Shown here piece by piece: positions 52,941 to 63,929 of a stretch of 64,000 nucleotides of DNA. The first letter of the stretch is position 1. Each line of letters starts with the position of its first letter. Below the pieces are notes generated by a model. It did not search any database. It was not told where the DNA came from and worked only from the letters and a program-made list of their open reading frames with translations. The DNA is from an uncultured Oscillospiraceae bacterium (GTDB taxonomy: Bacteria > Bacillota > Clostridia > Oscillospirales > Ruminococcaceae), in the NCBI GenBank assembly GCA_934513685.1, contig CAKSWY010000002.1, positions 57,946 to 121,945 of the forward strand, in the 5' to 3' direction. The position numbers and the translations under genes were made by a program.

Positions 52941-52990
52941 GAAGCAGAAGCGGCAGGTCCCAACGGATCTGCCGCTTCTGCTTTTGTTGT
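52941..52990. terminator. Bidirectional terminator between xpt and the Ubl-operon terminal gene
   Basis: Perfect 14-bp stem agcagaagcggcag / ctgccgcttctgct with TTTTGTTGTTTCC after it. Confidence 0.75.
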
Positions 52991-53091: not shown

Positions 53092-53718
53092 TCAGGCGAA
53101 CGGATTCTTCCCCTCGTCCACCGGCTCCCGCAGGGCGTGAAGCAGCGGCAGCGGGTTCTGCTTGTACAGCGCATAGCCCAGTCCAAGGGCCGCGCCGAAC
53201 GCACCCCCACCCAAAAAGTCGTGGCCGCCTTCAAACAGCAGCCCCGCCGCCAGCAGGCAGCCGCCCATCCACAGCAGGTAGCGCAGAAGGACCCGTCCTC
53301 TGGCCTCCAGCGCTTCCCGCTTGTGCCGGTTGACCGCCCGGGTGTATTGCAGGGCCTGGCCGTCCAGCCCGTGCAGGCGTTCCAGTGTTTCCCAGCTTTT
53401 TCGGGCGGGCGCGATCATCAGGGGAAATGGGGCCAGATTTTCAAAATTTTCCGTGGCCGCCTGCAGCGTCAGCCGATACAGGCGAACCTCGTCGGGCTGT
53501 TGATTCATTAAGGGGGTCAGCAGATCGACCGCCTCTTGCCAGTTTCCGGCCCGCAGATGGCGCACCGCCCGGTCAACGTCCTGGTCGAAGCGGCGAAGCT
53601 GCTCTTCCTGTGCAGGGTCCGCCACCGGCCAGCCGCAGCAGTCGCACTCCCGCCGCATCCGGTTCCGGTTGTAATGGCAGGCCGGGCAGCCGCATTGTGG
53701 GCACCGCCAATCGCTCAT
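53092..53718 (-). CDS. Zinc-ribbon plus transmembrane protein (last gene of the Ubl/E1/E2/JAB operon)
   Basis: 208 aa; N-terminal CPQCGCPACHY...CDCCGW zinc-ribbon-like cysteine cluster, helical middle, C-terminal hydrophobic segments (LLWMGGCLLAAGLLF...AFGAALGLGYALY). Confidence 0.5.
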   Translation of the reverse strand: MSDWRCPQCGCPACHYNRNRMRRECDCCGWPVADPAQEEQLRRFDQDVDRAVRHLRAGNWQEAVDLLTPLMNQQPDEVRLYRLTLQAATENFENLAPFPLMIAPARKSWETLERLHGLDGQALQYTRAVNRHKREALEARGRVLLRYLLWMGGCLLAAGLLFEGGHDFLGGGAFGAALGLGYALYKQNPLPLLHALREPVDEGKNPFA

Positions 53719-53754
53719 CCTGTCACCTTCTCTCTGTTCTCCGGTTTCGTTTTG

Positions 53755-54342
53755 TCAGTGCCGGGGCGGCTTTGCGGGCAGCGGCGGCACCACTTTGTTC
53801 CGGGGTGCCGGGTCAGCTGCCGGGGCAGGCTCCGGGCGGTACGGCGCACACAGCACCGGCGACGGCTCCGCCGCCTGCTGGGCATACCCGTCGTCCGCGC
53901 ATTCCGTCCGGTCATCCGCCGCCGGTTCCTCCGGCTCCAGCCAATCCAGAGGCTGCACGGCGGGCAGCTCACTGTGGGCAGTGGCTGCCGCCATCGGGAT
54001 CAGCACACCCAGAATGGCCAGCGTCATCGCCGCCATGGCAAAGCCCGCCGTGCGCAGGCTGGCGTTCACCGCCAAAAGCACCGCCCCCACCAGAATGGTA
54101 AAGGCCTGGGCCGCCCCGGCCAGCGCCGCTGCACCGGCGGCCCGTCGCAGGCCATACCGCCAGCACAACAGGCAGGCGTAAAGCGGCAACGCCAGAGTAA
54201 GCACGGTGCCCACCCCATGCACCAGCCAGCGGGCCGCCGCCATGGCAGGGGCCAGCCAGAAATAAAACAGCTGAGGCAGGGCCATCAAAGCCAGCAGCGC
54301 GGGCAGCACCATCCACCAAAACCGATTCGTGTTCCGCTCCAT
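53755..54342 (-). CDS. Small polytopic membrane protein with Pro/Ala-rich C-terminal tail
   Basis: 195 aa; RBS AGGAGGATG; 4-5 predicted TM helices. Confidence 0.5.
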   Translation of the reverse strand: MERNTNRFWWMVLPALLALMALPQLFYFWLAPAMAAARWLVHGVGTVLTLALPLYACLLCWRYGLRRAAGAAALAGAAQAFTILVGAVLLAVNASLRTAGFAMAAMTLAILGVLIPMAAATAHSELPAVQPLDWLEPEEPAADDRTECADDGYAQQAAEPSPVLCAPYRPEPAPAADPAPRNKVVPPLPAKPPRH

Positions 54343-54373
54343 GTTTCATCCTCCTGTTCGTTTGCCGTGTGAT

Positions 54374-55441
54374 TCATTCCAATCCGGTTCCGTTCGTCCC
54401 ATGGTTCGTGTGCAGCGGCTGGCCGCAGTGGGGGCAAACCGCCGCCTGCGGGCTGACGCTGCCGTGACAGCAGGGGCACTGCCGCAGCCGCCCCGGCAGC
54501 GGCGGCGTACCCGCCGGGCCGCCGGTTTGGGCCATCGTGCCCACCGTCTGCTGCAAAGTAGGCCAGAGCTGGCTCAGCAGCAGTGCCTGCGCCAAAGGTG
54601 CGGCCATCCCGCCGCCGCTTGCCTGCCCGGCGCTGCTGCCCCGGGCAGGCAGGCCCGTCATGGCTTCCGCCAGCGTGCGCCGGTCCAGGTTTCCGCCCCA
54701 GATCCGTTCCAGATGGTCCTTCTCCAGGTCGGTCTGCGTGCGGCCCGCGGCCTCTTTGCCTTCCAGCTCGTGCAGGCGCGCCCAGCCTTCCTCGGGAATG
54801 TTCACGGCCGTCACCGCAAACTGTTCCAGGCTCAGGCCAAACTCTGCCAGCGCCTGGGACAGCGGGCCGCGGGTCTCGGCCCCAATGGCCCCAAGACTTC
54901 GGTTAAACTCCACAATGGTGTGGCGGTTGAGCGCCCCGGCCAGAGTCTGCCGCAAGGGGGCCAGCACCAGCTGGCGCAGGCAGGGCTCCAGATCCTCGTC
55001 CGAGAACACGGCCTGATAGGTGCCCACCATCGTTTCCAGCGTCTGCAGCGGGTCCGCAATGCGGTAGGCCAAGCTGCACGAGGCCAGCGCCTCCATGGTC
55101 AGCCGGTAGCGCCGCTCCTCAAAGGGGATCGGCCCGGTGCCCAGCTGCATGAAGTTCGTTCTCTGGGTGGACACAAAGAACACGGTCACGCTCACCGGTG
55201 CTTCCCCACCGGTCATCAAATTGCGCAGCCGCACGAAGAAGGGGTCCACCCCGGTCATTAATTCGTAGCGCCCGGGCCAGTACGGCCCGACCACCTGCCC
55301 GTTAAGGGCGACAAAGGCCTGGGTTCCGGCCGGCACCAGCAGCACACTGCCGTTTACCACCGTCCGCCCCGGGCCGCAAAGCTCCGGCATCACGCGAATC
55401 AGGCTGCTTCCGCCCGGATCACGAATCACCCGCTGCAGCAT
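54374..55441 (-). CDS. SPFH/band-7 domain protein with C-terminal zinc ribbon
   Basis: 355 aa; RBS AGGAGGTG; SPFH-like core (PVSVTVFFVSTQRTNFMQLGTGPIPFEERRYRLTMEALASCSLAYRIADP); C-terminal CPCCHG...CPHCGQ zinc ribbon. Confidence 0.65.
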   Translation of the reverse strand: MLQRVIRDPGGSSLIRVMPELCGPGRTVVNGSVLLVPAGTQAFVALNGQVVGPYWPGRYELMTGVDPFFVRLRNLMTGGEAPVSVTVFFVSTQRTNFMQLGTGPIPFEERRYRLTMEALASCSLAYRIADPLQTLETMVGTYQAVFSDEDLEPCLRQLVLAPLRQTLAGALNRHTIVEFNRSLGAIGAETRGPLSQALAEFGLSLEQFAVTAVNIPEEGWARLHELEGKEAAGRTQTDLEKDHLERIWGGNLDRRTLAEAMTGLPARGSSAGQASGGGMAAPLAQALLLSQLWPTLQQTVGTMAQTGGPAGTPPLPGRLRQCPCCHGSVSPQAAVCPHCGQPLHTNHGTNGTGLE

Positions 55442-55460
55442 GGGTACACCTCCTGTTGAT

Positions 55461-56441
55461 TCAGCGGCTCGCCTGTTTCATAAGGGCAACGGCCCTCAGC
55501 GAAGCCACATGGTAAATGTTCCAGCATCCCGGCAGGCCGCGCAAGGCCTCGTGGATCGCCCGGCCCATCTGCGCATCGGTACACGGCGGCTGCATCTGCC
55601 CGTAGGCCATGCCGCCCTGCGCGGCACCGCTGCGCAGATGGCCGGTCAGCTCTGCCAGTGAGCAGACGCTGTGCCCGTGCAGCCGGTAATAGCTGTACGC
55701 CTCGGTGCGGCAGACGGGCAGGCCCTGCCCGGCAAACCCGCTGTGGTCCCGCGAGATCTGCTCGTCCGTCAGGTTGAAATACCGGTAGAGCATCGCGCCT
55801 TTCCCCGGCTTCTCCCAGGTCACATCGCAGTGCACCGGTTCGCCGTTCAGCCAGACCATCGCCCAGCAGTGGCCCTCCGTGCGCCCTCTCCCGAGGATTT
55901 GAACGCAGGCCACCCCGGCCCGGCGCAGGCAGTACAGCAGCAGGGCGTTCTGCCCCTCGCACACGCCCCGTGCGGTCAGCAGCGGCCCCACCAGATTGTG
56001 CTCCTGCTCGCTTCGGGTGTTCTGGTAGCGCAGCTGCCGGGCCAGCCGAATGTAAATGAGTTCTTCCCGCTGCACAAGGCTCAGGGCCGCCGTTCCGGCC
56101 ATCAACGGCAACATTTTCTGCCGGAAGGCCGCCTGCAATGTCTCGATTTCCGCAGGCGTATACAGCATTTGCAGCCGAAGCTTCCCTTCCTGCCCGCCGC
56201 GGTATAAGAAGGTCATCTGCCGCCCGAGGAAGAAGTACTCCGGCCGGTCATGCCGCAGGGCCTTGCAGGCAGCAAAGGCATCGTCGTATGCCCGTTCCCA
56301 CTTTTCCAGCGTCAGCGGAACCTCGGCGCGGTAATCTCCCCCGGCCAGGCGACGGTCCAGCTCATCGTAGAACCGCCTCGCCTGCCCGGGCGGCAGCCGG
56401 TCCCTGTAAAAACAGCGGCCCAGGGCGTGCGGCTCGCTCAT
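55461..56441 (-). CDS. Transglutaminase-like cysteine protease-fold protein
   Basis: 326 aa; RBS GGAAGAGGAGGG; the ATG overlaps the JAB stop (ATGA/TGA coupling). Cys-His-Asp triad context GVCEGQNALLLYCLRRAGV...GHCWAMVWLNG...HCDVTW. Confidence 0.7.
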   Translation of the reverse strand: MSEPHALGRCFYRDRLPPGQARRFYDELDRRLAGGDYRAEVPLTLEKWERAYDDAFAACKALRHDRPEYFFLGRQMTFLYRGGQEGKLRLQMLYTPAEIETLQAAFRQKMLPLMAGTAALSLVQREELIYIRLARQLRYQNTRSEQEHNLVGPLLTARGVCEGQNALLLYCLRRAGVACVQILGRGRTEGHCWAMVWLNGEPVHCDVTWEKPGKGAMLYRYFNLTDEQISRDHSGFAGQGLPVCRTEAYSYYRLHGHSVCSLAELTGHLRSGAAQGGMAYGQMQPPCTDAQMGRAIHEALRGLPGCWNIYHVASLRAVALMKQASR

Positions 56442-56442
56442 G

Positions 56443-57339
56443 TCAGCCCTCCTCTTCCTTCGGCCTGCCCGGAATCGTCAGTGTGACGCGCACTTTGGTG
56501 CAGCGGCGCAGCTTTCCGGTAACACAGCGGACGGTGCCTTTTGCCCCGTCCATGCGCAGGCAGCGGCTGGCCAGCTTCATCAATGCCTCCACCGGGAACT
56601 CCGGCATGGGGTGCTCCGTCTCCGCCGGGTGCGGCGCTTCTTTGGCCGCGGCCTTTGCGGTGCGGCGGCACACGATCACCTGGGCATTCTCAAAGTTTTT
56701 GCCGATGCTGGCCAGCATCTGGCGGCGAATGGGGTCGCACACAAAGATGCACACCGGCGCTTTGGCCGCCCGGGCTTCTCCGCTGCTGCGGTCCGTCCCG
56801 GACCAGAACACGCCCAGATCCGGGTGGGTGTGGCCCTCCAGGCAGTATTCACTGGGCCCGTACTCCAAAAACGGGTCCACCACGCACCCTTGGGCATCCC
56901 GGTTGAAGCGCTTTTCGTCCCGAAGGTACTCGTCCCGGTAATACTCCAGAAAGTCCAGCCCCGGGTTGTTCTCCCCGTTGGGGCCAAGGCCGGAGGCGGA
57001 GCTTCTCGTCCGGTTCATGGTGTGCACCTGCAGAAAGTGGCTGACCACCACGTTCACCCGGCCGTCCTTCTCCAGGAAGAAATGCCCCAGCCCGATGTAT
57101 TTCTGCTCCAAATGGTTCATGGGGGAACGGCGGCCGTAGCTCACCATCATGGTCAGTTCTTCGGCGGCTTCCGGCAGAAAGAACACGTAGTGTCGGCCCT
57201 TGCCGTGGCGCTCTGCCTGAAAGCTGCCGCAGTTCTTCTCAATCACCGCGGCGATCTCCACCGCGCTCAGCACCGGATACGTGCGGGACGGCGTAATGGG
57301 GCGCGGCGGCAACGGCGGGCAGTTCGTTTTCACTTCCAT
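56443..57339 (-). CDS. JAB/JAMM (MPN+) metallo-isopeptidase
   Basis: 298 aa; RBS AAAGGAGAA; JAMM zinc motif EGHTHPDLGVFWSGTD = H-x-H-x7-S-x2-D, with upstream Glu. Confidence 0.8.
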   Translation of the reverse strand: MEVKTNCPPLPPRPITPSRTYPVLSAVEIAAVIEKNCGSFQAERHGKGRHYVFFLPEAAEELTMMVSYGRRSPMNHLEQKYIGLGHFFLEKDGRVNVVVSHFLQVHTMNRTRSSASGLGPNGENNPGLDFLEYYRDEYLRDEKRFNRDAQGCVVDPFLEYGPSEYCLEGHTHPDLGVFWSGTDRSSGEARAAKAPVCIFVCDPIRRQMLASIGKNFENAQVIVCRRTAKAAAKEAPHPAETEHPMPEFPVEALMKLASRCLRMDGAKGTVRCVTGKLRRCTKVRVTLTIPGRPKEEEG

Positions 57340-57380
57340 CGCATGTTCTCCTTTGCTTGCGGGCCTTGCCCGGAGGTTCT

Positions 57381-58008
57381 TTAGCTGCGGCGCGGCAGCG
57401 GGGGCGGCGTGCCCGTGCCGGGGACCGCGCGGCGCACCGGAAGCGGCGGCCGCTGCGGGGCCTCCAGCAGCTTGGGCGAAATGGTGGGAAAGCGCCCGCT
57501 CGCCACACCGGCCCGGTGCCAGTCCGCCACATCGCCGTTGGCCATGGAGTCATAGCGGGTCACCGCCGGGTCGTGGATCATATCCTTCACCAGCTTTTCC
57601 GCCACCGTGAGCATCGAGCTGGTATAAATTTTCCATTCGTCAATGCAGGCGGCCCCGCTGCGGAATACGTTGGGGCTGGCCAGCCGCCGCTTTGCCGGGT
57701 AGGCAGCTTTCACGCTTTTCAGCGGATAGCCCAGAAACACCGCCACCTCCGCGCTCATAGAGGAACAGCTCTTGGGGGAAGCGTCGTCCCGGTCGGTGAG
57801 GTAATGGCTGGGGGCGTGCACCGTGATCCGGAAACGAAACTCCTCGCCCGGCTCACAGGCCACCTCCTCCACCGTCACATACCGGGGGTTGAACATACCC
57901 CGCAGAACGTTCCAGTCGTTGCGGATGGCCTCGCGGGATTCCCCGTCCGAAATGGAAACGGGCACGCTGCTGCCCCGCTCGTCCGTATAAGTCGTGCTGT
58001 ATGCCATG
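57381..58008 (-). CDS. Ubiquitin-conjugating enzyme (E2/UBC fold)-like protein
   Basis: ~209 aa from ATG 58008 (RBS AAGGAGGAG). UBC-like core EFRFRITVHAP..YPLKSVKAAYPAKRRLASPNVFRSGAACIDEW aligns to the eukaryotic E2 Y-P-F-K-P-P-K-V-x-F...HPN(V/I)...G-x-(I/V)-C-L-D block, including the catalytic Cys. Confidence 0.7.
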
Positions 58009-58020
58009 CTTCTCCTCCTT

Positions 58021-59279
58021 TTACTCCAAATGCTGCACCCGATGCATCTGCTCCGGGTCGCCCCGCAGGGCAAACACAAGCGTTTCCCGGCTGCCGTTGG
58101 CCTGCGTGCAGAGCACCTTCAGATGCGCGCCCAGCGGGTAGCCCAGCTGAAACAGGGTCCGTTCTTTCATCTCCGGGTCGCTCTCGGGCGAAAATGCATA
58201 AAGCACATCATCCATTGCGAAATCCACGTCGTACCGGGCCGGGCGGCCGACGGCGCGGCAGGCCTCACAGCGCAGATCCTGCAAAAAGGTGCGGCCCTCG
58301 TGCCGCATCACCTTGATAGGCGCGCCGCAGACGTGGCACAGGTCGCTGCGGATGAACCCGGTGTAGGTGCGCTGGTTGTAATTCAGCCAGTGAACCTGCA
58401 GCTCAAAGGCTGCCTGACCCAGCCGGGCGGCGATCTGCTCCAGCGCCTGTCCCAGCGTAAGTTCCAGCACCGTGCCCTCCAGCCAGAGGATCTCCTTCGG
58501 CGGCTGAACCGCACAGCCCGGGCAGCCCCGCTTCGCCTTGGGGTGGGTCACGGTCAGCTCCATATTCGGATAGGCGTAATAGGTCAGGCGCCGGTTCATG
58601 GCCTCTTTCACGCCGATCACCTGCGCGCGGAATTGCTCCGCCGTCAGGTTGGCCGCATGGCTGCTGGCCAGCCCGCTGGTGCGCACCGGCACCGTCTCAC
58701 CGTCCACCGCGCGCAGCTGCGGCCCGCTGCAGGAGGTGCGCACGGCTCCGTTTTCCAGCCAGCGCTCGTCCATCAGGCAGCGCAGGCAGAACTCTCGGCC
58801 GTCCATCATGACACTGCGCGCCATTTCGTCCTGCGTTCCGTCCATAATCACCACCGGGCGGCGCTCCGGCGGCAGCTGCATCCACAGCTCGTTGAACAGG
58901 GCCTTGGCCGCGTAATTGTCCAGGCACAGCACCACCACGTCGTAGTCCGCCAGTGCCTCCGGGCCGATCCTGCACAGGTCCGTGTCCACCCCGTTTGCGG
59001 TGCAGCCCTCTTCCAGAAACGGCTGCACCCGCCGGGCCACGCACCGGGCCTTGTTTTGGCCCACATCCTCCGGCGTGCGCACCAGGCAGCTGTGCTTGGC
59101 GGCATTTTCCAGCGTAAAGGTGTCAAAGTCGAGCAGGTCCAGGCTGCATCCCATTTTCACCAGCGCTTCCGCCACGTTAGACCCCACCGCGCCCGCGCCG
59201 CAAATGAGCACGCGTTTTCCGCCGAACAGCGGCCGATAGGCCGACAGCTTCAACGGATTGTACAGACGATCCTCCATCA
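58021..59279 (-). CDS. ThiF/MoeB-type ubiquitin-activating (E1)-like enzyme with C-terminal Cys-rich domain
   Basis: ~419 aa from ATG 59279 (RBS AGGAGG). Rossmann motif KRVLICGAGAVGSNVAEALVKMG, then LDLLDFDTFTLENAAKH; four C-x-x-C pairs in the C-terminal third. Confidence 0.8.
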
Positions 59280-59312
59280 TTTCCTCCTGTTTTGTTTCCG
59301 TCCTCGGCGACC

Positions 59313-59786
59313 TCAAAGAATGGGCCGCCCGTTGGGGGCAATTCGATGGCCGTTCGGGCAGCGATAACATCCGGCCGTTTCATTCCAGAAAATTTTCTGG
59401 GGCTGCCCGGGCAGGTTCCGCGCCCGGTCGATTGGGCAGCACGGGAACTGATCCGGCCGAATGCCCCGCGGCCCCGCGCCTGCCGCCGGGAGGGTGCGTC
59501 GCACCGCCGGTTCCGACCGCGAGGGCCGGGCGGTTCGCGGGTTCCGGTGGTTGATCGGCTCTTCCCGCCGCGCCGGGCGTACGTTTGCCGGGGCGGCCAG
59601 TCTCGGCCGATTTCCCACAGGCTGCCGAAGCGCCGCCGGGCGGCTCGCGCTGCCTCTCCCCTGCGGCAGAGGCGGCGGCTGTCTGCTTTTGTACGATGGT
59701 TTGCTGCGGCGGTTCAGGGCCATCCAGGCAGCCCCACCGCCCAGCAGCAGAATCGCCCCCGCTGCAATGCAAATCCAGTTCAGCAT
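59313..59786 (-). CDS. Small membrane-anchored protein with Arg/Pro-rich disordered tail
   Basis: 157 aa; good RBS GAGGAAGGA 7 nt upstream of the ATG; N-terminal TM helix MLNWICIAAGAILLLGGGAAWMAL; the rest is low-complexity R/P-rich. High GC makes a spurious ORF possible. Confidence 0.4.
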   Translation of the reverse strand: MLNWICIAAGAILLLGGGAAWMALNRRSKPSYKSRQPPPLPQGRGSASRPAALRQPVGNRPRLAAPANVRPARREEPINHRNPRTARPSRSEPAVRRTLPAAGAGPRGIRPDQFPCCPIDRARNLPGQPQKIFWNETAGCYRCPNGHRIAPNGRPIL

Positions 59787-59828
59787 GTACGATTCCTTCC
59801 TCGTTTTGCGGTGTTTGTCCGAAAATGA

Positions 59829-60146
59829 TTAAGCCACGCCGCCGTCGTCCGAAATGGTCAGCACATCGCCGTTCATCAGCCCCATGCCCTCCACCGTCTC
59901 GTTCTCATCGCAGCTTTCCACACCGGTGCGCTTATTCACAAACACCAGCTTGGCCGCGTCCCTCCGGATTCCCAGATCCTGCGCATACGCGTCCAACAGC
60001 TGGCCCATGGTGTTGCCTCCCACCACCGGGACCTTGGCGTAGGTCACGCCGCTGCCCTTGTTCACCAGATCGATCTCCATCATGGTCTGGGTGGTGCTGT
60101 CCTGCATGGTCGCTTCGCTCGCATCAAATTTGTTCCGTTCCGTCAT
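59829..60146 (-). CDS. Ubiquitin-like (beta-grasp) protein with C-terminal ...GG-VA
   Basis: ~105 aa from ATG 60146 (RBS GAAAGGGAG). ~80-aa beta-grasp-sized core ending LTISDDGGVA*; first gene of the operon that also encodes E1, E2 and JAB. Confidence 0.7.
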   Translation of the reverse strand: MTERNKFDASEATMQDSTTQTMMEIDLVNKGSGVTYAKVPVVGGNTMGQLLDAYAQDLGIRRDAAKLVFVNKRTGVESCDENETVEGMGLMNGDVLTISDDGGVA

Positions 60147-60169
60147 GGTTCGTCTCCCTTTCTGCACTC

Positions 60170-60563
60170 ATACTGTGTGTTGTATCCGGATTCCGCAGCT
60201 TCTTGTGAAAGCCTCGTGTCCGGATTTCTTTATGTCAAAACTCTCGCCGCCGGATGCATATTGTCGGATATACGATGCAACTTTTCAAAATTTGCTGCAA
60301 TTGGAGGAATTGACGCGAAACAGCAAAAGCCGCGGTGTCTGCACACCGCGGCTTTTCTGCTTTATTTTATAGGACATATGGTACGATAGGCACGCACAGG
60401 GAAGGCTTTGCTGCATTGGCATTCCCCTCGAGAGGATTTGATTGGTGTTATCGCATTAATTGTTTACGTAATTACTTGCGGAAGCTTGAACGGCGGCCGA
60501 AATGGCAGCATATTAGATTCACATACGATATACTTTCTTTCCTTTGGAGCGTTCAACCTCCAA
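60170..60563. promoter_or_regulatory. AT-rich intergenic region between the Ubl operon and the CRISPR array (Ubl-operon promoter region / CRISPR trailer)
   Basis: ~400 bp, distinctly AT-richer than its surroundings. Four direct CCGGAT/TCGGAT repeats (60185, 60220, 60250, 60275) and a perfect 14-bp hairpin aaaagccgcggtgt-ctgc-acaccgcggctttt at 60325-60356. Confidence 0.45.
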
Positions 60564-62056
60564 GAGTCACCCCTGCGTATACGGGGGAAAAGCCAGCGCC
60601 ATCTGCAACTTCGCAATGGCCGTAGGATCACCCCCGCGCATGCGGGGAAAAGTCTCCGATAAAAACGGTGTTTCCGCCGGACGGGGGATCACCCCCGCGC
60701 ATGCGGGGAAAAGCTTTGACCCAAAGTTGGCCCGGTTGTGTCCTACGGGATCACCCCCGCGCATGCGGGGAAAAGGCCTGAACGACCGAGAAAATGCCCG
60801 CGATGGTGGGATCACCCCCGCGCATGCGGGGAGAAGAGTTTTTAAACGATGCACCGTCAGTCCATGTGGGGATCACCCCCGCGCATGCGGGGAGAAGTGT
60901 GAAAATCGGCCCGGACACCTACCGCAAAAAGGATCACCCCCGCGCATGCGGGGAGAAGTTGGCTTTTTACAATCCGTGTTATAGGGCTTTAGGATCACCC
61001 CCGCGCATGCGGGGAAAAGGGTAAAAGGTGCCGTCGCCGGGCACCAGCCAGGGGATCACCCCTGCGTATGCGGGGAAAAGCAGGCAAGGCCGGGGCCGAC
61101 GGTCACGGTCATGGGATCACCCCCGCGCATGCGGGGAAAAGTACCGATTTCGGCGGCACACGCCAATGTACTCAGGATCACCCCCGCGCATGCGGGGAAA
61201 AGTTTGTCGGCAGCTGCGTAAAGAATTCAACCACGGGATCACCCCCGCGCATGCGGGGAAAAGTGCAGCGCCGACTAAAAAATATAGGCAATGCCAGGAT
61301 CACCCCCGCGCATGCGGGGAAAAGAACATTTTTGCACATAACAGCGTACTTAAATTGGGATCACCCCCGCGCATGCGGGGAAAAGTTGTGCATAATTGTC
61401 CATATGCAGCACATCACAGGATCACCCCCGCGCATGCGGGGAAAAGAAACAGTCCTCAAAACCGACGACCCATCGGTTAGGATCACCCCCGCGCATGCGG
61501 GGAAAAGCAGCGTCCACAGCCCTGCAACAATCATACATAAGGATCACCCCCGCGCATGCGGGGAAAAGGAAATTTGTGCTTGATGGGATGCAAGCGGCGG
61601 GGGATCACCCCCGCGCATGCGGGGAAAAGAACTCGCCCGTCTCCATGTTCTCGACGCCCACAGGATCACCCCCGCGCATGCGGGGAAAAGTGAGTTATAA
61701 TAAAGACGATGAAAGGAGTGATAGGATCACCCCCGCGCATGCGGGGAAAAGACATTGTGAGGTGCGTATGAATTTTTTGAAGTGGGATCACCCCCGCGCA
61801 TGCGGGGAAAAGCATTTTTTGAGAAGGGGGGTGAATTTGTGAGCGGGATCACCCCCGCGCATGCGGGGAAAAGACACTCCCTGACGCAATCAACAACGGC
61901 GTCGAGGGATCACCCCCGCGCATGCGGGGAAAAGCCGGCGCATCTTCCACCCCCGAGGCCCGGAGCGGGATCACCCCCGCGCATGCGGGGAAAAGAAGGC
62001 TGCGATCGTATGTTTGGCCCGTGAGACGGGATCACCCCCGCGCATGCGGGGAAAAG
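60564..62056 (-). CRISPR. CRISPR array, type I-E-like: 25 repeats of 28 nt (GGATCACCCCCGCGCATGCGGGGAAAAG on + strand), 24 spacers of 32-34 nt
   Basis: 61-62 nt periodicity; the repeat has an internal CCCCGC-GCAT-GCGGGG hairpin. The repeat at 60564 is degenerate (gagtcacccctgcgtatacgggggaaaag); variants occur at 61053 and at 60809/60870/60931 (GAGAAG). Orientation is assigned tentatively from the degenerate terminal repeat and the co-oriented cas genes. Confidence 0.9.
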
Positions 62057-62073
62057 ACTAAAAAGATCCCGTA

Positions 62074-62967
62074 TCACCGACTGTATCCGTTGCGTTCCGC
62101 TCCATTTTCGTTTAGTTTCGCATAAACTTTCTGCGTCAAACGGCAGTCGGGCACCGCCCGGTGCTCTACCTTGTCTGCCAGCGCAAAATGCTGCGCCAGT
62201 GCAAGCAGTTTATAACTGGACAGGCCCAGTATTTTTCGCCGTGCAAGAGGAAGGAGATCGATTTTCCGGTTGGCCAAAACCGGTTTCATGTTCCGAATGC
62301 AGGCCATACGCAGAAATTCCAAATCAAATTGCAGGTTGTGTCCCACCAAAGTATCTTTGCCTACAAAGCGCAGGAACGCCTCCAGCGCATCCGCGGCGTC
62401 CATACCGCCTTCCAGTTCTTCCTGTGTGATGCCCGTCAGGCGGGCAATTTCTGCGGGCAACGGCGTTTCCAGCCGCACCAGCGCCGAAAACTCCTCTCCT
62501 GGCTGCCCATCCCGGACCCGGACCGCGCCATACTCCACGATTGCATCCGTTGCCGCATGCAGTCCTGTTGTTTCAAGGTCGATCACGGTATAATCCTGCT
62601 TTCCGGGCGGTCGGGCAGCTCTTTGCGCCATTTTCTGTGCCATCTGATACTTTGCCGCCTTGCTGAATCCCGGTTTCAGCTCCAACGCCTCGACCTGGGG
62701 TTGCGCTTGCGGAAGCGGACGGCGCATCAGCTTAATGCCGTCGTAATCCACCACTTCCCAGTTAGTATTATGGGTGCGGAATTCCATCTTCTGCTCGCCG
62801 GCCGCTGTATAGACCATCGTCGCCTGTCCATTTTTCAGGTACTGGCAGACCCGATCCCAGACCGCATCCCGCACGCGGCTGCTCACGTTCCCCACGTAGA
62901 CGCCGGTGTTGATCTCACACAGCCATTTGGACAGATCTCCCCGCAGGCGCGGCGGGCAGCTGGTCAT
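62074..62967 (-). CDS. cas2: CRISPR-associated Cas2 fused to DnaQ-like 3'-5' exonuclease (type I-E Cas2-DnaQ)
   Basis: N-terminus PPRLRGDLSKWLCEINTGVYVGNVSSRVRD matches E. coli Cas2 [26 protein letters not shown]. C-terminal DEDDh exonuclease motifs (VIDLETTGL, GHNLQFDLEFL, YSR). The true start is probably upstream at a non-ATG codon (~62982), restoring the IVVLT beta-strand. Confidence 0.85.
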   Translation of the reverse strand: MTSCPPRLRGDLSKWLCEINTGVYVGNVSSRVRDAVWDRVCQYLKNGQATMVYTAAGEQKMEFRTHNTNWEVVDYDGIKLMRRPLPQAQPQVEALELKPGFSKAAKYQMAQKMAQRAARPPGKQDYTVIDLETTGLHAATDAIVEYGAVRVRDGQPGEEFSALVRLETPLPAEIARLTGITQEELEGGMDAADALEAFLRFVGKDTLVGHNLQFDLEFLRMACIRNMKPVLANRKIDLLPLARRKILGLSSYKLLALAQHFALADKVEHRAVPDCRLTQKVYAKLNENGAERNGYSR

Positions 62968-62975
62968 CGTCAGAA

Positions 62976-63929
62976 CTACAATGGCTCCTCACCCTCTTCC
63001 CAGGCAGCATAGTTGATGCCGTTGGACACCGTGCCGAGGTTGTTGTCCCAAAGATACACGGCATCCGGTTCTTCCATCTGTTCTCCGTCGCTCAGCAGCA
63101 GCCAGCGAATGTCATGCACCATCCGTTCCAGAATATGGTGCTCCACCATGGCATCCCGCACACGGCGGCGCACAACGGCAGGCAGGTCTTCCGGTGCCTG
63201 CGTTGCAACCTCAAATGCGATGGGAATGGTCACCTCGGCCTTATACAGGTCTGCAATGTCGTACACAAAAGAACACTCATGGCCGACATGCACAAACCCC
63301 AGCCCTGGTGCGCAGCCCAACGCGACAATGACCGCATGCGCCAGCCCATACAGGCACGCATGCCCGGCCGACAGCGCCTGATTGACCAGGTCTCCTAACG
63401 CAAAATCCTCCGGGCGGTACAGCCGTCCACTCCATGGCACGCCGGTTTCTTTGGACGCCTTGCGGTAGACGTTCCTCACACGGCTGCCCTCCCGGCCGCG
63501 TAGCTGCTGCATCGTAAGGTTGGAAACATCTTCTTCAGGGAAACGCAGCTGATACATCTTACGCACCACGTCCAAATGCTTCCGTTGGTTGCTGACAAGT
63601 TCTGCCTGCCGAATCAGCATCCTGGAATGGGTGGTCAGCGGGCGTCCGTGGGCGTAGTAGCGCACGCCGTGCTCTCCCACCCAGACAGCTCCCACGCCGG
63701 TATCGCCCATCAGCTCCATAGCGCGATGGGTCACGCGGGTGCCAGGCCCAAGCAGCAGCACCGAGATGCCCGCCGCCGGGATCTGGACGACGCCTTTTTC
63801 GTCCGTCACGGTAATGGCACCGTCCTGCCGCCCCAGCGTACAGTGTTCCAGATACAGAAACGTCATCCGGTCTTTTACCTGTGGCAGTGCCTGCAAATCA
63901 GGCCGGATCATGCCCGGAAGTTCATCCAT
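62976..63929 (-). CDS. cas1: CRISPR-associated endonuclease Cas1, type I-E
   Basis: 317 aa; closely alignable to E. coli Cas1/YgbT (GTRVTHRAM, VWVGEHGVRYYA, DVVRKMYQLRF, LRGREGSRVR, GFVHVGHECSFVYDIADLYK); RBS GGAGGAA. Confidence 0.92.
   Translation of the reverse strand: MDELPGMIRPDLQALPQVKDRMTFLYLEHCTLGRQDGAITVTDEKGVVQIPAAGISVLLLGPGTRVTHRAMELMGDTGVGAVWVGEHGVRYYAHGRPLTTHSRMLIRQAELVSNQRKHLDVVRKMYQLRFPEEDVSNLTMQQLRGREGSRVRNVYRKASKETGVPWSGRLYRPEDFALGDLVNQALSAGHACLYGLAHAVIVALGCAPGLGFVHVGHECSFVYDIADLYKAEVTIPIAFEVATQAPEDLPAVVRRRVRDAMVEHHILERMVHDIRWLLLSDGEQMEEPDAVYLWDNNLGTVSNGINYAAWEEGEEPL

Follow-up and report, generated by a model that had tools for sequence, protein, structure and literature searches.

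A predicted ubiquitin-like-conjugating enzyme related to the canonical E2 lineage in a gene module of Clostridia

The E2 gene and its module

We analyzed a 64,000-nucleotide (nt) stretch of DNA from an uncultured gut Oscillospiraceae bacterium (assembly GCA_934513685.1, contig CAKSWY010000002.1; hereafter, the window) that encodes an E2, that is, a UBC-fold ubiquitin-like-conjugating enzyme. The E2 gene is the fourth in a module of nine genes on the minus strand (53092-60167) that encode, in this order, a ubiquitin-like protein (Ubl), a membrane Zn-ribbon protein, an E1, the E2, a JAB protease, a transglutaminase-like protein, an SPFH protein, a 195-amino acid (aa) membrane protein, and a 208-aa zinc-ribbon membrane protein (Table 1). 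From the computed fold, conserved residues, UQ_con homology, operon structure and synteny, and motif distribution, we consider it probable that the product of this open reading frame (ORF) is a catalytically competent, canonical-lineage E2, which belongs to the enzymatic core of a self-contained bacterial ubiquitination-like module.

The E2 ORF starts with an ATG at 58007, preceded at a distance of 5 nt by a ribosome-binding site (AAAGGAGGAG), and ends with a TAA at 57383-57381; the gap between the stop codon of the E1 gene and the E2 start is 13 nt. The original prediction had placed a protein of 209 aa at 57381-58008; the ORF exists, with both values off by one (208 aa, 57381-58007). A search of 5.8 billion clustered proteins yielded 147 E2 homologs, nearly all of them 204-215 aa long and originating from metagenome-assembled genomes (MAGs) of Clostridia. 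No Pfam domain was found on any of these 147 proteins.

Assignment of the protein to the UBC fold

Several observations weigh against the interpretation of this protein as a competent canonical-lineage E2. The window E2 showed no match in Pfam, NCBIfam, or PADLOC at E < 0.1 and accordingly stayed below the gathering threshold of PF00179 (UQ_con), which was touched by only one of 51 close homologs, at E = 0.07 (these 51 sequences, 48-61% identical to the window protein, make up alignment A1). The A1 family profile found no E2 among PDB sequences; its matches, antibody light chains with E of about 0.2, were rejected as spurious. Direct hhalign comparison of the E2 family with four human E2s gave a probability of 17.8% and a pairwise E of 0.0014. 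The histidine of the eukaryotic HPN motif is replaced by Ser111, which is invariant in the close family, with His found in sister bacterial clades. The TM-scores of the structural matches are moderate (0.45-0.63), and the structural case leans on AlphaFold2 (AF2) predictions that may be biased to well-represented folds. Among the module proteins, no RING, HECT, or other E3 was detectable with Pfam, and the C-terminal sequences of the Ubls point both ways as to whether the E1-activated residue is Ala or the residue before it. Conservation of the UBC block, described as clear in the original prediction, is thus less than clear at the sequence level, given the PF00179 results and the lost histidine.

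A phmmer search of PDB with the single E2 sequence produced 37 sub-threshold matches, 36 of which were eukaryotic E2s (E, 0.3-1.1), all aligned on E2 residues 92-147 with the YP, PN, and Cys in register. Because the direct hhalign match to human E2s was weak, an intermediate clade carrying HPN was needed for the link. An hmmsearch of 1.84 billion representative proteins with the family profile identified 91 proteins at a library-wide E ≤ 1e-3, the more distant of which bear a genuine HPN (for example, RIFHPNVYKSGLICLGTKW). PF00179 was matched by 18 of the 50 aligned members of this extended family (best E = 3.2e-15), and 7 of 10 tested distant members exceeded its gathering score (28-56 bits versus 27). 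By hhalign, the close E2 family aligned with the HPN-bearing bacterial relatives over 148 columns (probability 98.1%, E = 7e-14), and these relatives aligned in turn with human E2s (98.8%, E = 1.2e-16). In the profile-profile alignments, S111-P112-N113 corresponds to the HPN motif, C121 to the catalytic Cys, and W125 to the conserved Trp. Given that most of the distant members tested pass PF00179 and the window E2 fails, the UQ_con membership of the latter is transitive; comparison with PF00179, which had been proposed for this protein, remained below detection for the window E2 and succeeded for most of its distant relatives tested. The window E2 is, then, a divergent, sub-threshold member of the canonical UBC (UQ_con) lineage, devoid of the HPN histidine.

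The AF2 model of the E2 built from the family alignment (pLDDT 89.5, pTM 0.81) displays the UBC alpha/beta fold, namely, an N-terminal helix, a four-stranded antiparallel sheet, the Cys loop, a crossover helix, and C-terminal helices. In a Foldseek search of PDB with this model, the top 50 matches were all eukaryotic E2s (E from 8e-5 to 1.5e-3), with a target-normalized TM-score of about 0.6. Together with the transitive UQ_con link and the presence of E1, Ubl, and JAB genes in the same operon, the predicted fold bears out the initial assignment of the protein as an E2.

The active-site block

The two peptides on which that assignment was based, YPLKSVKAAYPAKRRLASPNVFRSGAACIDEW and SSMLTVAEKLVKDMIHDP, are E2 residues 94-125 and 130-147, respectively, and the block reads YPLKS…LASPNVFRSGAACIDEW. 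In A1, the residues G93, Y94, P95, L109, A110, S111, N113, V114, F115, G118, A120, C121, I122, W125, S130, and S131 are invariant, and P112 and D123 are conserved at ≥90%. Because the block residues are this strongly conserved in the alignment, the motif can be taken as real and as under selection. The predicted catalytic residue, C121, lies in the loop after beta4, is invariant in the A1 and A4 alignments, and is one of just two invariant residues across the extended family alignment, down to ~20% identity. The Pro-Asn part of HPN is retained, with Asn113 located 8 residues before the Cys, precisely as in UBE2D2 (N77-C85 in UBE2D). According to the hhalign gaps, the stretch from YP to SPN is 2 residues longer than in UBE2D2 and the distance from the Cys to the Trp is 4 residues shorter, so that the residue-for-residue spacing claimed previously is exact for the SPN-to-Cys core and does not extend to the flanking segments.

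The helical segment that had been proposed to follow the Cys is found in the AF2 model at residues 132-143, after the Cys loop, and the further helices 158-169 and 178-181 are kept as well. Beyond the common fold, the model contains an extra N-terminal beta-hairpin (2-8, 14-20) ahead of helix 1 (21-35) and short strands (67-70, 79-81) inserted between the second and third strands of the main sheet. The only low-confidence part is the C-terminal tail (roughly the last 25 residues, ~185-208).

Could the UBC-like motif have arisen by chance in a spurious ORF? The window is GC rich (60-65%) and replete with long shadow ORFs, and the direct family searches were negative. Such an origin is refuted by the 147 homologs of the same length, the high-confidence AF2 model, the library-wide significant links of the extended family to UQ_con proteins, and the conserved synteny, to which the canonical ribosome-binding site can be added; we assign it a vanishingly small probability. 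The resemblance to the UBC block, as originally maintained, is not fortuitous, considering the residues invariant in the 51 homologs, the family-wide conservation of C121, and the E2 identity of 36 of the 37 PDB matches.

The same active-site features bear on whether the protein is a non-catalytic UBC-fold adaptor, similar to UEV or RWD proteins, that would bind to the Ubl or E1 but form no thioester. UEVs characteristically lack the catalytic Cys, whereas in this family a Cys in the catalytic position is invariant down to ~20% identity and the Pro-Asn of HPN is kept; furthermore, catalytic E2s rank above UEV and RWD proteins in both fold searches. An adaptor role therefore appears very improbable, and we retain the interpretation of the protein as a catalytic E2.

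Other genes of the module and its surroundings

The Ubl ORF probably starts at M8 (60146), which gives a protein of 105 aa. The Ubl aligned with SUMO, ubiquitin, and NEDD8 by hhalign (probability 72.5%, E = 3e-5), and nearly all matches of its profile in PDB were Ubl domains; scans against Pfam, NCBIfam, and PADLOC gave nothing. The 157-aa membrane protein encoded next displays the conserved pattern GP.G..P.QFPCCP...IFW...CY.C..GH and is a candidate adaptor or E3.

The nearest solved relatives of the E1 are Cap2, MoeB, and SAE2. Across the 34 aligned E1 sequences, S213-C214 and two CxxC pairs are invariant (Zn cysteines C195/C198/C283/C286); Cys214, which follows the first Zn-binding CxxC in the crossover-region insertion, is the candidate catalytic Cys. 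Taken at its longest (449 aa), the E1 ORF shares 58 nt with the 3' end of the gene preceding it (59280-59370), homologs are 423 aa long, and conservation begins near residue 35, for which reasons the real start is probably M31 or M32 (about 59280), which removes the overlap.

The JAB protease adopts an Rpn11-like fold and contains an invariant JAMM motif, E57...H170-x-H172-x7-S180-xx-D183 (56791-56832); scans against Pfam, NCBIfam, and PADLOC and a search of PDB sequences with the JAB profile gave nothing. The catalytic Glu57 is located 113 residues upstream of the HxH (56989-57171, residues about 57-117, and 56791-56832). Residues ~105-160 are highly conserved and partly resolved by AF2, with low pLDDT at 109-120; this segment may be a family-specific insertion that recognizes the Ubl. 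The catalytic triad Cys161/His191/Asp206 of the transglutaminase-like protein is invariant in 28 sequences, so that activity as a papain-fold enzyme (isopeptidase, deamidase, or cross-linker) is probable. For the 208-aa zinc-ribbon membrane protein, no family match was found in Pfam, NCBIfam, or PADLOC.

Table 1. Positions of the module genes and of E2 features in the window
Feature	Position	Strand	Evidence or remarks
Ubl, beta-grasp, SUMO-like, ends ...DDGG-VA	59829-60167	minus	112-aa ORF
157-aa membrane-anchored protein: N-terminal transmembrane helix, Pro-rich linker, C-terminal CC...CxxC..H Zn-ribbon-like domain	59313-59786	minus	Syntenic in 33 loci
E1 (ThiF/MoeB-type adenylating enzyme)	58021-59370	minus	Pfam ThiF, 1e-20; conservation in 34 sequences
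E2 (UBC-fold ubiquitin-like-conjugating enzyme)	57381-58007	minus	208 aa; stop codon included
E2 active-site block Y94-W125 (YP ... SPN ... G.AC.D.W)	57633-57728	minus	Invariant in 51 homologs; aligns to eukaryotic E2 YP/HPN/Cys/Trp
E2 S111-P112-N113, HPN counterpart with His replaced by Ser	57669-57677	minus	Conservation; HPN here in sister clades
E2 Cys121 codon (TGC), predicted thioester-forming catalytic cysteine	57645-57647	minus	Invariant family-wide; aligns to UBE2D Cys85
E2 low-confidence C-terminal tail with two PLPxR motifs (PLPVR 188-192, PLPRR 203-207)	57387-57446	minus	pLDDT 58-70
JAB/MPN metalloprotease (Rpn11-like)	56443-57339	minus	N-terminal PLPPR at 57301-57315
Transglutaminase-like (papain-fold) protein	55461-56441	minus	Pfam Transglut_core, 1.4e-7; syntenic in about 29 loci
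SPFH/Band-7 protein with C-terminal zinc ribbon and PLPGR motif	54374-55441	minus	Pfam Band_7_1, 1.7e-19; synteny; motif at residues 314-318 (about 54486-54500)
195-aa multi-pass membrane protein with C-terminal PLPAK motif	53755-54342	minus	Synteny; motif at residues 187-191 (about 53770-53784)
208-aa protein, N-terminal CxxC...CxxC zinc ribbon, C-terminal transmembrane segments, last module gene	53092-53718	minus	Synteny in about 22 loci

A promoter-like site is present upstream of the Ubl gene. The module is bracketed by two strong GC-rich hairpins at 52941-52984 and 60325-60356 (20-bp and 14-bp stems with flanking A/T runs), which look like bidirectional terminators that separate it from xpt and from a CRISPR array. 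The array (60561-62057) consists of about 24-25 copies of a 29-nt repeat (GGATCACCCCCGCGCATGCGGGGAAAAG-like) with a 61-nt period and is followed on the minus strand by genes for Cas2 (CT1978 type) fused to a DnaQ/RNase_T exonuclease (62074-62967) and for Cas1 (62976-63929). This locus is a type I-E-like adaptation module, located directly upstream of the Ubl module.

Distribution and synteny

Scanning one genome for each of 185,579 species with a pattern-based search, we detected 33 loci, all from Clostridia (Oscillospiraceae, Lachnospiraceae, Ruminococcus, Erysipelotrichaceae, and Anaerovoracaceae); one Oscillospiraceae MAG is 97% identical to the window. Where the locus is long enough, the order Ubl, transmembrane Zn-ribbon protein, E1, E2, JAB is maintained almost without exception. 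About 29 loci include the transglutaminase-like gene, ~22 the SPFH gene and the last zinc-ribbon membrane gene, and ~16 the 195-aa membrane protein gene. Roughly half of the loci run on into a downstream conjugation set, which encodes an 847-aa VirB4-like ATPase, a WHH/colicin-DNase nuclease, a ClpP-like protease, a 261-aa protein, and the coupling protein VirD4/TraG (L004:14844-20633, L001:12382-15431, and some 15 further loci). This type IV secretion system (T4SS) part is missing both from the window copy and from its near-identical relative, and the window copy is sandwiched between the type I-E CRISPR array and housekeeping genes.

The distant HPN-type E2s are encoded in ThiF-Ubl-E2-JAB operons on mobile or defense-rich contigs, and one such operon directly follows a TraG gene. 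A natural fusion, P0255 (640 aa), joins a ThiF domain (residues 20-231) to a C-terminal E2 domain of this family and ends in PPPLPGG; found on metagenomic contigs of up to 29 kb, it is a Rosetta-stone link between the E1 and the E2. P0274 (3954 aa, with 13 "stretches") was rejected as a low-complexity false positive. A tblastn search with the E2 detected nothing among PLSDB plasmids, nothing among INPHARED phages, and one contig in IMG/VR, so that a phage or plasmid origin is unsupported.

The Ubl C-terminus, Ubl precursors, and the mode of ligation

The search for Ubl homologs returned just 7 close sequences, and the diversity of this family was therefore assessed from the loci. Every Ubl homolog ends in, or continues past, Val-Ala; among the 29 distinct Ubls (L001-L041; 59829-59840 in the window), the preceding residue is Gly in 21 and another residue (R, E, S, C, V, or N) in 8. 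C-terminal extensions, such as those in L030 and L035, as well as the second copies in tandem di-Ubls, come after the Val-Ala. In the distant HPN-type operons, by contrast, the Ubls terminate in Ala-Gly. BilA, the Ubl of the Bil system, ends in Gly97-Ala98, and its terminal Ala is trimmed by BilC (PMC10557695). The processed Ubl postulated in the original prediction, with the GG bared by trimming of the VA, is plausible as far as these sequences go.

Tandem di-Ubl genes are present in at least six distinct loci (L004:7656-8219, L005:4271-4834, L013, L019, L021, and L037) and encode two near-identical units head to tail (187-192 aa), each ending in ...AGVA. Such a protein would be a polyubiquitin-like precursor that needs endoproteolytic maturation.

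The unusual Val-Ala terminus, combined with the transglutaminase-fold protein that is syntenic in about 29 loci and has an intact Cys-His-Asp triad, the membrane association of four module proteins, and the lack of a detectable E3, leaves room for an active E2-like enzyme in a non-classical pathway, that is, transglutaminase-like ligation or transfer of the Ubl, at the membrane, to an acceptor that is not a protein or is part of the cell envelope. Legionella MavC, which catalyzes transglutaminase-type ligation on UBE2N, provides a model for such a reaction. However, minimal modules without the transglutaminase-like gene retain the Ubl, E1, E2, and JAB, and Bil and CBASS conjugate their Ubls to lysines without an E3 (PMC10557695). 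We accordingly regard a non-classical pathway as unlikely and favor conventional conjugation to lysines by the E2.

A proline motif shared by five module proteins

The two proline motifs in the E2 tail recur elsewhere in the module. Counting the pattern P[LMIV]P.[RK] (hereafter, PLPxR) on the module proteins of each locus, we found it in the C-terminal tail of the E2, often twice (29/36 loci), at the N-terminus of the JAB protein (24/35), in the linker of the membrane Zn-ribbon protein (27/33), near the C-terminus of the SPFH protein (18/22), and at the C-terminus of the 195-aa membrane protein (all 16 loci). The motif is nearly absent from the E1 (3/35) and the Ubl (1/31), and in the locus survey neither the transglutaminase-like protein nor the last membrane protein carried it; it was seen once among five neighboring conjugation-cluster proteins checked. 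Its background frequency in the other ORFs of the window is 0.14 per 1000 aa. The recurrence of PLPxR on these five proteins suggests that a common docking receptor brings the enzymes together at the membrane. The transglutaminase-like protein was rejected as this receptor because modules that lack its gene retain the motif. PLPxR also persists in minimal modules devoid of both the transglutaminase-like and the SPFH gene, which makes the E1, Ubl, Zn domain, or a host factor the more likely receptor.

Comparison with known systems

To our knowledge, only three bacterial E1/E2 conjugation families have been characterized, CBASS-Cap2, Bil, and Bub, all with strongly diverged E2s. The window E2 shares with the canonical eukaryotic E2s (PF00179; UBE2D2, Ubc13, Ubc9, and UBE2S), which are its best structural matches and to which it is linked via intermediate profiles, the predicted UBC fold including the C-terminal helices, the YP, the xPN with Asn 8 residues before the Cys, the G-x-x-C-x-D signature, and the following Trp. 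It differs from them by the invariant Ser in place of the HPN His, the 2-residue insertion and 4-residue deletion, the N-terminal hairpin, the beta2-beta3 insertion, and the Pro-rich PLPxR tail; moreover, it is bacterial and operon encoded, and is missed by PF00179 directly.

Bil (types I and II, BilABCD) is an antiphage system in which Ubl is conjugated to structural proteins of the phage. Like Bil, the module encodes the Ubl, E1, E2, and JAB as separate genes in a single operon, its Ubl has one or more extra residues after the Gly, and the systems are sparse and mobile. In contrast to Bil, no PADLOC model matches the window E2, JAB, or Ubl; the module adds the transglutaminase-like protein, the SPFH protein, and three membrane/Zn-ribbon proteins, and T4SS genes often adjoin it. 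The BilB hallmarks (a Cys with a downstream His/CEHH signature, and Bil homology) are missing from the E2, which represents a different E2 lineage. The ubiquitin operons of Caldiarchaeum and Asgard archaea consist of ubiquitin, E1, E2, a small RING E3, and Rpn11, whereas the module has no RING E3, occurs in bacterial (Clostridia) hosts, encodes a SUMO-like Ubl that ends in Val-Ala, and includes membrane-associated accessory genes.

The similarity to type II CBASS (Cap2/Cap3) lies in the E1, whose closest solved relative is the E1 domain of Cap2 (7tsx, E = 7e-7), and in the JAB partner; PADLOC E1-E2 models match the window E1 at 1.7e-13. Unlike in CBASS, the E1 and E2 are separate genes, and no CD-NTase was detected with Pfam among the nine module proteins. 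The Bub system (6E/DUF6527) combines a Ser-based E2, a Tyr-based E1, and a DUF6527 serine protease, whereas the module E2 is Cys based and no DUF6527 is encoded. Cap2 and BubB also lack the C-terminal helix pair (PMC11601596) that the E2 model keeps. The window E2 thus falls outside the Prok-E2_A-E, BilB, Cap2, and BubB types, and the module would function like Bil or the archaeal ubiquitin operons yet is not a member of Bil, CBASS, or Bub. A 2024 review lists just isolated bacterial homologs of human E2 catalytic domains (PMC11354881). Our literature search found no description of such an operon type, and none is included in the current family libraries that we searched. With bacterial ubiquitination-like systems already an established theme, the module is a new variant among them.

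Predicted mechanism and biological role

By homology, we infer all chemical steps of the conjugation cycle, including the thioester chemistry, the direction of transfer, and the substrates of the JAB protease. The ThiF-type E1 would adenylate the C-terminus of the co-encoded SUMO-like Ubl and take over the Ubl as a thioester, possibly on the invariant Cys214. The Ubl would then pass to Cys121 of the E2 by transthioesterification, and the E2 would catalyze aminolysis onto target lysines without a recognizable E3, as in Bil and CBASS. Asn113 of the SPN is predicted to act in place of the HPN Asn, in both its oxyanion and its structural role. The Rpn11-like JAB protein would mature the Ubl precursors (tandem di-Ubl and C-terminally extended forms) and probably reverse conjugation. 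Membrane assembly of the cascade and its biological role we propose from the motif distribution and from genomic context, respectively. The CRISPR context in the window and the T4SS context elsewhere suggest defense, inter-element conflict, or control of conjugation; as a pointer to antiphage defense, the CRISPR-Cas I-E neighborhood of the window copy is only suggestive.

A broader and more tentative possibility, which we currently rate as rather doubtful, is that these modules constitute an unrecognized class of ubiquitination systems on clostridial conjugative elements, in which a canonical E2, an Rpn11-like JAB protease, a SUMO-like and partly tandem Ubl, and a membrane assembly held on one receptor via PLPxR would act on targets linked to conjugation and T4SS or on those of invading elements. 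Under this scenario, the module and its HPN-bearing sister operons would represent a reservoir of canonical E2s in bacteria, with a bearing on how the eukaryotic E2 family arose.

The module brings together an E2 of the canonical lineage, a protease of the Rpn11 type, and a SUMO-like Ubl that is tandem in some cases, and is abundant in gut metagenomes of Clostridia, where it has carried no family annotation. If active, it would be a tractable model in bacteria for the chemistry of canonical E2s with a naturally occurring His-to-Ser variant of HPN, for a new, motif-based mode of cascade assembly, and for the purpose of ubiquitin-like tagging on conjugative elements. It bears also on the question of whether the bacterial relatives of eukaryotic-type E2s go beyond cases of isolated transfer.
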